DNA of 64,000 bases from an uncultured Alphaproteobacteria bacterium (GTDB taxonomy: Bacteria > Pseudomonadota > Alphaproteobacteria > HIMB59 > GCA-002718135), in NCBI GenBank assembly GCA_902525035.1, contig CABZFN010000006.1:6538-70537 (forward strand), given 5' to 3'. Shown here one piece after another: positions 12,029-52,540 of this stretch; position 1 is the first letter of the stretch; each line of letters starts with the position of its first letter. The notes beneath the pieces were generated by a model that was given only the letters and a program-made list of their open reading frames with translations, made no database searches and was not told the origin of the DNA. A program made the position numbers and the translations under genes.

Positions 12029-12508
12029 TTACAGTGCTTTCCAGTCTTTAAATTCCTCTGGCTTTTCTTGTTTATCTTTGTAATTTATTTCTCCTTCGAT
12101 TTTACCACCATCATCTATCTTAATAGATCCATAGTAAATTTTCCCATTTATATTTCCTGAAGATTTAACTCCTAAAATCTCTTTTGCATTTACTTCTCCC
12201 TCTATGTAGCCTTCCACAGACATTGTTTTAGCTTTTACATTTCCAAGTATTTTTCCAGAATGATGGACATTAATTTTAATACATTCAATATCTCCTTCTA
12301 CTACACCTTGAATATTAACTTCATTTTCGGCTTTTATGTTACCTTTAATCGTAACACCCTCACCTATCATTAGTGTACTATTAGTAATTTTATCAAGTTC
12401 CTTTGAAAATTCACTTTTTTCATTTTTGTGTTCACCAATACTTATTGGCTCATAAAGTTTAGCTTCAATTTTTTCTTTGTAATTATTTTTATTCATTAGT
12501 AATGGCAT
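12029..12508 (-). CDS. Bactofilin (polymer-forming cytoskeletal protein, CcmA family)
   Basis: IGEGVTIKGNI...IQGVVEGDI...G.I.G beta-helix repeats. Confidence 0.9.
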   Translation of the reverse strand: MPLLMNKNNYKEKIEAKLYEPISIGEHKNEKSEFSKELDKITNSTLMIGEGVTIKGNIKAENEVNIQGVVEGDIECIKINVHHSGKILGNVKAKTMSVEGYIEGEVNAKEILGVKSSGNINGKIYYGSIKIDDGGKIEGEINYKDKQEKPEEFKDWKAL

Positions 12509-27662: not shown

Positions 27663-27671
27663 TGTTAAAAT
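27663..27671 (+). promoter_or_regulatory. Extended -10 promoter element for the riboswitch-bactofilin transcript
   Basis: TG-T-TAAAAT ending 9 nt before the first aptamer. Confidence 0.45.
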
Positions 27672-27680
27672 TCTACTTAT

Positions 27681-27711
27681 AGCAGTTGTAGAAACCTGCT
27701 TTAACAAAACT
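27681..27711 (+). ncRNA. preQ1-I-like riboswitch aptamer 1
   Basis: AGCAG-UUGUAGAAAC-CUGCU-UUAACAAAACU: 5-bp P1, loop U...AG...AC, A-rich tail ending in C. Confidence 0.7.
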
Positions 27712-27713
27712 CC

Positions 27714-27744
27714 TGCAGTCGAAGAATACCTGCGTTAAAAAACA
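27714..27744 (+). ncRNA. preQ1-I-like riboswitch aptamer 2, next to the RBS
   Basis: UGCAG-UCGAAGAAUAC-CUGCG-UUAAAAAACA, then UAAGGGAGG and ATG at 27759. Confidence 0.7.
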
Positions 27745-27758
27745 TAAGGGAGGAAAGA

Positions 27759-28211
27759 ATGTTTGATAAAAAAGAAGATAATTCAAATTCAACGCCTGAT
27801 GTTTTTAGACCTGCTAAGGGATCTGCAAAAGTAGTCATTGGTCATGGTGTAGTTATTAATGGTGAAATTAAAAAAGCTGATGAAGTGCAGATTGACGGTG
27901 AAGCCGATGTTACGATGAAAACTGATAATCTTTTAGTTGGTGCTACTGGTGCTTGCAAAGGTGATATTGAAACTCATAACGCTGATATTTGGGGTGCATT
28001 TGATGGAGATATTAAAGCATCTGGTACTCTTACTATTCAAGAAGAAGGTAAAGTATCAGGTAAAATTGAGTATCAAAATTTACAAATTAAGCTTGGAGGT
28101 CAAATAAGTGGTGACATTAAACTTTCTGATAAAATTCAATCAATAAAAAAAGATACAAAACCATCAGAAGATAATAATGTTTCATTGCAAGAATCTGTGA
28201 AAAAAGAATAA
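27759..28211 (+). CDS. Bactofilin, second copy
   Basis: VIGHGVVINGEI...G.CKGDI...GAFDGDI...GKVSGKIEY..L.I..GGQISGDI. Confidence 0.88.
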   Translation: MFDKKEDNSNSTPDVFRPAKGSAKVVIGHGVVINGEIKKADEVQIDGEADVTMKTDNLLVGATGACKGDIETHNADIWGAFDGDIKASGTLTIQEEGKVSGKIEYQNLQIKLGGQISGDIKLSDKIQSIKKDTKPSEDNNVSLQESVKKE

Positions 28212-28221
28212 ACTAATAATA

Positions 28222-28626
28222 ATGAAAGAAAAATTATTTAAACCTATACATTGGATTATGTTAATCCTTATATCTCTTGATTTTATTGATACTAGTTACA
28301 GAATTACTTATGGATACTTTTCAGGTGAAGGTGTTCAACCCCCTGTTGGAGATTTTAATGTTCAACTCTCAACTTTAGATTTTATTGTAAGTATCGTATT
28401 TCAGTTAGCAATCGCTTACACAATTTATATGTTGTACAGTATGAAAAGAAGTGGTGGGTATTATTTAGTGGGATTAAATATTCTTTTTGTGATTTATGGA
28501 TTTATTTTAGGCCCATTTAGTACAGTGCCTGCTGGTGAAGTTATTCCACTAATAGCTGGCTTTATGTTCTTCTATATTATTTTAGTCATCGGCATACCTT
28601 ATTTGTATTTTGATAAATACGAATAA
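28222..28626 (+). CDS. Four-TM membrane protein, probably co-transcribed with the bactofilin
   Basis: Hydrophobic segments; 10-nt gap. Confidence 0.7.
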   Translation: MKEKLFKPIHWIMLILISLDFIDTSYRITYGYFSGEGVQPPVGDFNVQLSTLDFIVSIVFQLAIAYTIYMLYSMKRSGGYYLVGLNILFVIYGFILGPFSTVPAGEVIPLIAGFMFFYIILVIGIPYLYFDKYE

Positions 28627-31133: not shown

Positions 31134-32840
31134 TTAATACATAAAGTAACGTTGAGCTAAAGGTAATATTTTAGCAGGTTCACAGGTAATTAATTCTCCA
31201 TCTGCCTTAACTTCATAAGTTTCTGGATTAACTTCTATATTTGGACAATAATCATTTAATACCATATCTTTTTTAGAAATTTTTCTAATATTTTTAACTG
31301 GCAATAAAGATTTGCTAATTCCAGAATTTTTGAATGAATTTTTATCTAAAGAAGCTTTACTTACAAATGTTGCAGTAGATTTTTCTAATGATTTTCCAAA
31401 AGAAGAAAACATTGGTCGTGAATACACTGGTTGTGGTGTTGGAATAGAAGCATTAGGATCACCCATTTGCGAACAAGAAATACTCCCACCTTGCAAAACC
31501 ATTTCAGGTTTAACACCAAAAAAAGCTGTATCCCAAATGACAATATCTGCACGTTTATTCTTTTCAATACTGCCAATATGATCGGAAATACCATGAGCAA
31601 TGGCAGGATTAATTGTATATTTAGCTATATAACGTTTAACACGTAAATTATCATTATCACCCTGCTCTGCCTTTAATTGCCCACGTTGTACTTTCATTTT
31701 ATGAGCGGTTTGCCATGTTCTTATAATAACTTCACCAACACGACCCATTGCTTGACTATCAGATGCAATAATTGAAAATGCACCCATATCATGCAGTATA
31801 TCTTCAGCAGCAATGGTTTCTTTTCGAATTCGACTTTCAGCAAATGCAACATCTTCTGGTATAGACTTATCAAGGTGATGACAAACCATTAACATGTCTA
31901 AGTGTTCTTCGACTGTATTAACTGTATAAGGTCTTGTGGGGTTTGTTGATGAAGGAATAACATATTCTTCACCACAAACTTTTATAATATCAGGTGCATG
32001 ACCTCCTCCTGCTCCCTCTGTGTGAAAAGCGTGAATAGTTCTTCCATTAATCGCCTTAATCGTGCTTTCTACAAATCCACTTTCATTCAATGTATCAGTG
32101 TGAATCATAACTTGAATATCATGTTCATCAGCTACATTTAAACAATTATCGATAGCTGCTGGAGTTGTACCCCAATCTTCATGTAGTTTTAATGAACTTG
32201 CTCCAGCAATTACTTGTTCTTCGAGAGCTTTAGGTAATGAACTATTTCCTTTACCTGCAAAAGCTAAGTTCATTGAAAAAGCATCAGCAGATTGTATCAT
32301 TCTCTCTATGTGCCATGGTCCCGGGGTAACAGTCGTTGCTAATGTTCCATGAGCAGGACCAGTTCCTCCTCCCAGCATCGTTGTAATGCCTGAATGAAGC
32401 GCATCATCAATTTGTTGAGGACAAATAAAATGAATATGACTATCAAAGCCTCCTGCTGTGATAATTTTTCCCTCACCGGCAATAATTTCTGTTCCAGGTC
32501 CTATAATAATATTTACATTTGGTTGTGTATCTGGATTACCAGCCTTTCCAATCTCATTAATTAAGCCATCTTTAAGACCAATATCAGCTTTATAAATTCC
32601 TTTTACATCAACAATTAAAGCGTTTGTTATAACTGTATCGACCGCACCATCTTGTCGGGATACTTGAGACTGACCCATTCCATCTCGAATGACTTTTCCT
32701 CCACCAAATTTTACTTCTTCACCGTATGTTGTTAAGTCTTTTTCTACTTCAATAAAAAGTTCTGTGTCAGCAAGTCTAATTTTATCACCGGTTGTTGGAC
32801 CATACATATCAGCATAAGAATCTCTATTTATTTTTTTCAT
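31134..32840 (-). CDS. ureC: Urease subunit alpha
   Basis: [43 protein letters not shown]. Confidence 0.99.
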
Positions 32841-52393: not shown

Positions 52394-52420
52394 GCTTAGC
52401 TATGGATTTTAAAAAGATCC

Positions 52421-52473
52421 GCGTTCCTTCAGCTTTAGCTTACTTCCGATCTGTTATAAACAGATTGAACGAT
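52421..52473 (-). ncRNA. Glutamine riboswitch (glnA motif), aptamer 2
   Basis: AUCGUUCA-AUCUGUUuauAACAGAU-CGGAAGUA-AGCuaaaGCU-GAAGGAACGC. Confidence 0.9.
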
Positions 52474-52487
52474 TTAATAACTTGCAT

Positions 52488-52540
52488 GCGTTCCTTCAAC
52501 TTTCGTCTACTTCCGTTTTGAATTATTCAAAATGAACGAT
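52488..52540 (-). ncRNA. Glutamine riboswitch (glnA motif), aptamer 1
   Basis: AUCGUUCA-UUUUGAAUaAUUCAAAA-CGGAAGUA-GACgaaaGUU-GAAGGAACGC. Confidence 0.9.

Follow-up and report, generated by a model that had tools for sequence, protein, structure and literature searches.

PreQ1 riboswitches are described as regulators of queuosine metabolism and uptake (PMC3766115), and the review passages at hand link them to queuosine genes only. In a small-genome, low-GC (29% GC) marine alphaproteobacterium, a leader resembling two class I preQ1 (preQ1-I) aptamers precedes a gene for a bactofilin and has been kept for long on this cytoskeletal gene. Moreover, neither synthesis nor maturation of preQ1 seems possible in the hosts. 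The locus raises the question whether the two elements are genuine aptamers, which ligand they would sense and how they would act on the bactofilin gene. In the open-licence literature we found no paper tying a preQ1 riboswitch to bactofilin, and searches combining bactofilin, DUF583, COG1664 or CcmA with riboswitches gave nothing on this pairing among the matches listed. The supplement of McCown 2014 reportedly lists gene contexts and might include it. Here we analyse the window, i.e. the whole stretch of 64,000 nucleotides covered by a first-pass annotation, together with relatives of the leader in other genomes.

The tandem leader and its pockets

Two back-to-back stem-loop-tail units upstream of the bactofilin gene had been reported in the first-pass annotation, and their coordinates were confirmed in the window sequence (Table 1). 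Both units have a 5-bp P1 stem closed by G5-C16, an AC before the 3' strand of P1 and all of G5, U6, G11, A14, C15, C16, A29 and C30. The closing pair, the AC, U6, G11, A29, C30 and an A-rich tail are shared with the preQ1-I type II references, the Thermoanaerobacter tengcongensis queT-type leader and the Bacillus subtilis queC leader (RF00522). Type II aptamers are defined by AC before the 3' strand of P1, with C15 as the specificity base, and type I aptamers by UC and two ligands per pocket (PMC11625349); UC is absent from both units. In the type II pocket, U6 and A29 read the ligand edge and G11-C30 forms the ceiling pair (PMC7641330). We assign the units to type II because of the AC before P1. 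The type III trait, a Shine-Dalgarno (SD) sequence AAGG fully paired within the pseudoknot, is absent, as the SD core begins 3-7 nt past C30.

Unit 1 has, as had been claimed, exactly the spacing of a reference class I aptamer, that of Thermoanaerobacter (PMC8494917), with identity at 10/10 positions of the 10-nt tail and 7/10 of the loop; unit 2 has the tail length of the B. subtilis aptamer. The annotation had also recorded a single U for C in the loop of unit 1. The U is present, but the unit differs at two loop C's (positions 7 and 9) and at position 12.

Table 1. Positions of the leader elements and genes in the window
Feature	Position	Strand	Remarks
Candidate extended -10 promoter element	27663..27671	+	Consensus match, 9 nt upstream of unit 1
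Unit 1, preQ1-I type II-like aptamer	27681..27710	+	Model R1 24 bits, E 1e-4; 5-bp stem 27681-85/27696-700, 10-nt loop, tail end C27710
Unit 1 contact bases	G5 27685, U6 27686, G11 27691, A14 27694	+	Roles as in PMC7641330
Unit 1 contact bases, 3' part	C15 27695, C16 27696, A29 27709, C30 27710	+
Unit 1 variant pair A4-U17	27684/27697	+
Unit-1 tail end and linker CUCCU	27710..27714	+	Pseudoknot P2 strand, predicted anti-Shine-Dalgarno
Unit 2, second aptamer, tail as long as in B. subtilis	27714..27743	+	Every contact base present; stem 27714-18/27730-34 with U.G at its end, loop of 11 nt, tail shorter by one base than in unit 1
Shine-Dalgarno GGGAGG	27748..27753	+	4 nt 3' of unit-2 C30
Bactofilin, 150 aa, constant downstream gene	27759..28211	+	ATG at 27759; PF04519 E 5.6e-21
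134-aa membrane protein	28222..28626	+	10 nt past the bactofilin stop; accessory

The Rfam PreQ1 covariance model (RF00522) matched neither unit at its gathering cut-off of 39 bits: unit 2 scored only 13.9 bits (E 2.5) and unit 1 was unlisted. Over 5 genomes none of its matches was above cut-off, and the best ones inspected (10/10) lay in coding sequence. Folding z-scores of the leader were unremarkable (-0.04 to -0.72). A descriptor drawn from the units had no match in the 1.38-Mb genome apart from the two units themselves, and a stricter one gave 1 match in the genome versus 0 in 40 Markov genomes; both descriptors are biased toward the units from which they were written, and conservation is the stronger test. 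Because of the Rfam score, the lack of G4-C17 and the different gene context, we do not file the leader as a plain preQ1-I member, and its ligand binding is a prediction.

The extended -10 consensus of the first-pass annotation is present, but a sigma-70 scan did not list it among its predictions. In 45 of 60 orthologous loci a permissive TG-n-TA-nnn-[T/A] pattern lies at most 32 nt from the first unit or start, a count without a null. In 4 marine metatranscriptome runs, both leader and gene are covered by RNA contigs, one of which (27695-27866) spans the two; no more than 9-11% of the words were present in the runs, and the contigs carry no start, strand or level information. Upstream, a gene for a short voltage-gated ion channel (PF00520; 26938-27621) ends 59 nt before unit 1 and is syntenic in many relatives. 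Elsewhere in the window, two tandem glutamine riboswitch aptamers lie on the minus strand (52418-52540; Rfam, 65.7 and 64.8 bits), and an Rfam 5_ureB_sRNA match (32402-32691, 110.6 bits) is antisense to the 5' part of a ureC-like ORF in a urease cluster. The latter match may reflect coding conservation.

Conservation and relatives of the leader

The genus sample comprised 105 genomes, 53-96% complete, 63 of them with the bactofilin orthologue. A pattern that left the inner stem free gave 53 matches in 52 of the 105 genomes (reversed-pattern control: 6), and all 53 lie 15-61 nt upstream of the orthologous bactofilin and before no other gene. At least one unit is present in 55 of 60 loci, i.e. 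the leader is conserved before orthologous bactofilins; all loci are from one genus and kin are not independent. Two units were found in 23 of these loci, a single SD-adjacent unit in 24, and a distant unit with a remnant in 8, where the sole intact unit lies 42-48 nt from the start and the remnant follows. The five loci without a scored unit include one cut by a contig end, one G5.U16 variant recognised by eye and three with none, the proteins of which are 60-70% identical. Two of these motif-less loci (L221 and L222, genomes G061 and G081) carry TG-n-TATAAA 5-6 nt before the bactofilin ATG and no SD, which suggests that their mRNAs are leaderless and that aptamer and SD are gained or lost as one cassette. 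At L054 (G067:C23:2250-2696), a bactofilin orthologue with an internal stop, either a pseudogene or a sequence error, stands behind an intact tandem leader.

Over 78 units, A14 is kept in 78, U6 in 76, C30 in 74, C15 in 72 and G11 in 68; G5, C16 and the A-run are requirements of the finder. In distant pairs the eight pocket positions, three of them required by the finder, are 0.96 identical, and flanks and third codon positions 0.44. Among 30 distinct units selected for intact pockets, P1 is 94.7% paired, with C3-G18 replaced by U-A in 6/30 and two-sided change in 2/5 pairs. P2 is 65% paired by sequence; G11-C30 is kept in 30/30 and the 9-32 pair is broken in 20/30. Within the order, a model built from the bactofilin-leader units matched 49 of 151 genomes, every one of them in the genus, with 0/71 in the sister family and 0/10 in other genera; its two off-target matches were partial. 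Eight paralogous bactofilin loci have no unit. The second bactofilin of the window (12029-12508, minus strand) lacks such a leader, as had been noted, and a whole-window scan with model R1, described below, misses it.

The two positions differ in their upkeep. All pocket features are kept in 27 of 31 distant (5') units versus 12 of 23 3' units, and unit 2 is degenerate in 11 of 23 tandems. Two of the 24 single units carry C15U (L215:1003-1037 and L216:965-999), which may mean loss of function or an altered ligand. In 21 of the 24 singles A1 stands opposite A20, a mismatch that combines the 5' end of unit 1 with the 3' end of unit 2. The two-unit form is probably the ancestral one and the singles collapse products; this order follows from the A1.A20 signature and not from the protein tree, a quick version that is largely unresolved.

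A unit-derived pattern was further run on 28 of 64 parts of a species-genome collection and gave 120 matches. All five stem pairs are formed in 46 of them, namely 9 bactofilin leaders, probably from the same genomes as the genus set and not independent of it, and 37 other elements. Downstream of the 37 stand 16 queC, 12 yhhQ (two truncated and below cut-off), 3 queF, 2 queD and 2 queT genes and 2 genes of no family, i.e. 35 of 37 precede queuosine genes. Retrieval by a unit-derived pattern accounts for part of the likeness of these elements to the units, but not for their gene context. Model R1, for which queuosine-gene switches alone were used (27 of the 37 elements), found unit 1 (Table 1), with only 8.8 bits (E 0.65) for unit 2, and matched 50 of the 105 genus genomes once each, 46 times at the bactofilin leader. 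In reverse, the model from bactofilin-leader units matched 6 of 8 queuosine-gene loci tried. Off-target model matches, in 6 genomes, were partial and no leaders. In a class-wide sample of 401 alphaproteobacterial genomes, 3 pattern matches fell outside the genus versus 9 control matches; viral contigs gave 3 matches, all with at most three stem pairs, and no bactofilin relative.

The 16 queC-linked elements are of type II, have an 11-nt loop and stand directly upstream of the gene, mostly in Rhodobacteraceae (L085, L094, L096, L103, L109, L129, L131, L135, L159, L160, L165, L179, L185, L189, L191 and L195). Tandem type II-like units precede yhhQ in Chloroflexota (L098, L114, L169 and L200), the second units having 9-nt loops as judged by eye. 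Like the bactofilin leader, these tandems consist of two units joined by a 2-3 nt link and followed by an SD; unlike it, they have G4-C17, a perfect 4-bp P2 in unit 1, no anti-SD and a transporter gene downstream. Table 3 of PMC9481103 lists preQ1-I as not occurring in tandem.

Contact bases, conservation before orthologues and models that find each other's loci all agree with the tandem class I preQ1-type aptamers before bactofilin that had been proposed. On sequence grounds, we read both units as a variant form of the class I type II preQ1 aptamer, real and under selection, and two units with a type II pocket probably form a working switch for a ligand with a guanine face. A decaying relic of a captured cassette of riboswitch and SD, or else a protein site or palindrome in the DNA, in each case free of small-molecule control, would accord with scores below the Rfam cut-off, the two C15U loci, the many degenerate second units and the three divergent orthologues lacking the motif, two of them apparently leaderless. 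We judge it very unlikely, as unpaired pocket bases stay constant where flanks and third codon positions have reached saturation, the loop varies between 9 and 11 nt and conservation is asymmetric, both being traits of the RNA family, and the stem covaries.

The downstream protein is a bactofilin, as had been annotated, with a PF04519 score (75.1 bits) far above the cut-off of 27.9. Its N-terminus MFDKK resembles MFSKKKK, the membrane-targeting consensus of bactofilins (PMC12448750). By analogy with its family it is presumed to polymerise at the membrane and to affect cell shape. The 134-aa protein matches no Pfam or NCBIfam family, and only clusters of unnamed look-alikes score at least 0.9; homologue counts were 17 and 23. 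The four membrane segments ascribed to it correspond to four hydrophobic stretches, but the first is weak. Its gene is probably co-transcribed with bactofilin. It is present in 35 of the 55 motif loci, no deep branch of a quick protein tree has it, and we therefore regard bactofilin as the constant target.

Earlier, the 134-aa protein was suggested to be a precursor transporter so far unrecognised. This reading, which would make it the true switch target, draws on a membrane protein of no family, encoded 10 nt downstream and probably on the same transcript. It is highly improbable: 20 of the 55 motif loci, with 980-1500 nt of sequence available downstream, lack the gene, as do all deep branches, the switch occupies the SD of bactofilin itself, and a transporter gene, yhhQ, already stands beside tgt.

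The candidate ligand

Among the 105 genus genomes, tgt was found in 91 and yhhQ in 89, and queA, queF and queC in 0/105 each, with matches in the controls; queH was found in 0/5 genomes. By gene content, tgt and yhhQ without queC, queF and queA are the pattern of queuine salvage. A search for Q_salvage (PF10343) matched no control genome and so carries no weight. In the genome of the window (L032:1498-3720, G000:C3), yhhQ begins 8 nt past rpmB, overlaps tgt and has no leader; the aptamer motif is absent at the genus's own yhhQ-tgt locus. The sister family has the same rpmB-yhhQ-tgt order and lacks queA in 5/5 genomes. This arrangement without queA likely stands for direct queuine salvage in a free-living lineage.

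The pocket of the tRNA-modifying enzyme TGT carries GGSLG in 17/17 loci, one residue shorter than GGLAVG of Zymomonas. The motif fits the published GG[LS][AS]G at 4/5 positions, and the enzyme keeps the bacterial DEC cysteine. GGLAVG has been associated with preQ1 use and GG[LS][AS]G with queuine use by TGT, the GGSLG pocket of Anaplasma was modelled with room for queuine at 4.0 A from it, and Bartonella, which has tgt only, prefers preQ1 (PMC11570991). Direct queuine salvage by YhhQ/QPTR and TGT in Chlamydia and Anaplasma uses the same gene set and GGSLG; here, in contrast, the lineage is free-living and marine, and the account of that route in PMC11570991, as far as it was available, describes no riboswitch. 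Gene inventory and GGSLG pocket together point to likely queuine import and lack of preQ1 synthesis.

The first-pass annotation had proposed preQ1 or queuosine status as a possible cue. Plain preQ1 is doubtful, since queC, queF and queA are missing from all 105 genomes; queuosine status or another guanine-like ligand are possible cues. Since no preQ1-making genes were found in the genus, the aptamer likely senses an imported related base, e.g. queuine. If the leader is a working switch, its ligand is probably a 7-deazaguanine; from gene content, queuine would be the most likely one, with preQ1 as a possibility. Our literature search found no paper on queuine binding by this aptamer class. Queuosine-read NAU codons are not enriched in the bactofilin gene (50th percentile of 1311 ORFs); bactofilin as a 'Q-gene' rich in NAU was rejected, its content being average.

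The loop U's were considered as a ligand switch and rejected: U7 occurs in 2/37 and U9 in 5/37 of the other fully paired elements, and both occur in the published B. subtilis aptamer (PMC8494917). Loop C-to-U exchanges, offered earlier as a sign of a new ligand, are thus found in ordinary preQ1 switches. A different position sets the bactofilin leaders apart. A4-U17 is present in 78/78 units versus G4-C17 in 37/37 of the other fully paired elements, and the consensus G4-C17 pair is absent from the bactofilin-leader units. As far as the aligned elements tell, A4-U17 is the sole fixed difference from queuosine-gene switches. When metagenomes were scanned for A4-U17 elements with a base other than G at position 2, which left out G2 elements by design, 28 matches were obtained, none with 5/5 stem pairs. 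A4-U17 is a single inherited change and may be drift in a 29% GC genome, although the neighbouring G2-C19 is almost invariant.

An odd gene association together with a fixed change near the pocket is the usual mark of a variant riboswitch. The leader could then be a preQ1-I derivative for a different guanine-faced metabolite or for a signal of cell-envelope growth, and A4-U17 was seen in no other lineage examined. All direct contact bases are unchanged, however, and we think this quite unlikely. The variant pair adjoins the exit of the ligand side chain; amine-substituted preQ1 binds type II aptamers about 50-fold weaker, and the substituent lies beside G4/G5 (PMC8494917).

Guanine or a close purine might also be the ligand of the same fold on the same target, so that purine supply would be reported to the cytoskeleton. 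Type II aptamers bind preQ1 best, then preQ0 and then guanine (PMC11625349), the 105 genomes have no preQ1 synthesis genes, the motif is absent at yhhQ-tgt, A4 could weaken side-chain recognition, and purine status would be an easier link to growth and shape. Against this, the base in contact with the aminomethyl group, G5, is retained, though it is also the pocket floor and a finder requirement. The genus-wide retention of yhhQ and tgt leads one to expect a 7-deazaguanine pool, and guanine deaminase was not above cut-off in 5 genomes, a weak point. On balance a purine ligand is rather unlikely, with guanine as the chief competitor of a 7-deazaguanine.

Possible direction of the proposed switch and its meaning

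The folding program used cannot model pseudoknots; bound shapes were imposed as constraints, which favour opening, and the following values are to be read accordingly. Without ligand, the predicted ensemble has 27710-27714, the tail end and linker of unit 1, paired with the SD (27748-27752). The probability of an unpaired SD is 0.06 in the free leader, 0.27 with unit 1 fixed, 0.01 with unit 2 fixed and 0.89 with both, and holding both units in the bound shape costs 6.6 kcal/mol. An SD as closed as that of bactofilin was found for 13% of 82 baseline genes and also in 12 of 30 queuosine-gene leaders. Linker-SD pairing above 0.5 is predicted for 9 of 15 CUCCU leaders, but for just 1 of 14 other leaders with two parts and for none of 13 singles. 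All 31 5' units have C or U at position 32, which pairs with loop position 9 in just 1/31 of them, versus 20/23 3' units and 20/24 singles. The complementarity of the unit-1 tail to GGAG follows partly from the loop GYAG. In the B. subtilis switch, too, the tail alternates between pseudoknot and expression platform (PMC11625349), as is predicted here for the tail of unit 1.

The leader could, whatever its ligand, be an ordinary OFF switch, in which the bound pseudoknot beside the SD blocks initiation and the second copy sharpens the response. The preQ1-I switches covered in the review PMC11625349 are OFF switches. GGAG or GGGG begins 3-7 nt past C30 in all 47 SD-proximal units. This is within the reported range, in which repression persists with the aptamer as far as 10 nt from the SD and steric blocking weakens past 10-15 nt (PMC10018353). 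The type I switch of Carnobacterium antarcticum in the same report likewise controls translation from an aptamer a few bases before the SD, but it has UC and two ligands per pocket, is OFF and was studied with engineered spacers. In the window, unit 2 lies four bases from the SD and could repress on its own when bound. In the 24 loci with only the SD-proximal unit, binding is predicted to open nothing (median 0.51 to 0.45).

Other observations speak against repression. The SD of the window is predicted closed without ligand, it is the SD-proximal unit that decays (11/23) while the distant one stays intact (27/31), and 8 loci keep only a unit at 42-48 nt, past the reach of steric blocking as given in PMC10018353. 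We regard the OFF reading as a real possibility, though short of probable. In the clade of the window, strand switching with ON output is weakly favoured by the closed free SD, the position-32 pyrimidine, the better-kept distant unit and the range of steric blocking, and from the folding models ON would be slightly more probable than OFF.

In the ON mechanism we propose, YhhQ would import a 7-deazaguanine base, most likely queuine. The base would pair with C15, and U6 and A29 would read it between G5-C16 and G11-C30. Binding would draw the unit-1 tail CUCC into the pseudoknot and off GGAG. Unit 2 would be folded too, and its CCU strand could then not occupy the SD either, so that both pockets would be needed. 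Release of the SD would switch bactofilin translation on. We give a two-unit, preQ1-type ON switch of bactofilin translation for an imported 7-deazaguanine, queuine being favoured, nearly an even chance. The fullest version, a queuine-sensing two-pocket ON switch that arose from a captured preQ1-I aptamer, was retuned at A4-U17, was duplicated and ties cell shape to a tRNA micronutrient, is unlikely as a whole. We know of no link between queuine and cell shape.

Compared with preQ1-I type II switches, the bactofilin leader differs by A4-U17, its tandem arrangement, an SD outside the pseudoknot and the bactofilin gene itself, and moreover by a host without queC, queF and queA, a predicted ON output and scores below the Rfam cut-off. 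Natural controls exist in the single and tandem forms, the C15U variants and the motif-less orthologues, and the RNA is small, about 30 nt per unit. The leader would be new either way, as the first queuine sensor, as a re-use of the preQ1-I fold for guanine or as a metabolite-controlled bactofilin. If the queuine ON reading is true, a tRNA micronutrient derived from neighbouring organisms would serve these marine bacteria as an environmental cue for their membrane cytoskeleton.
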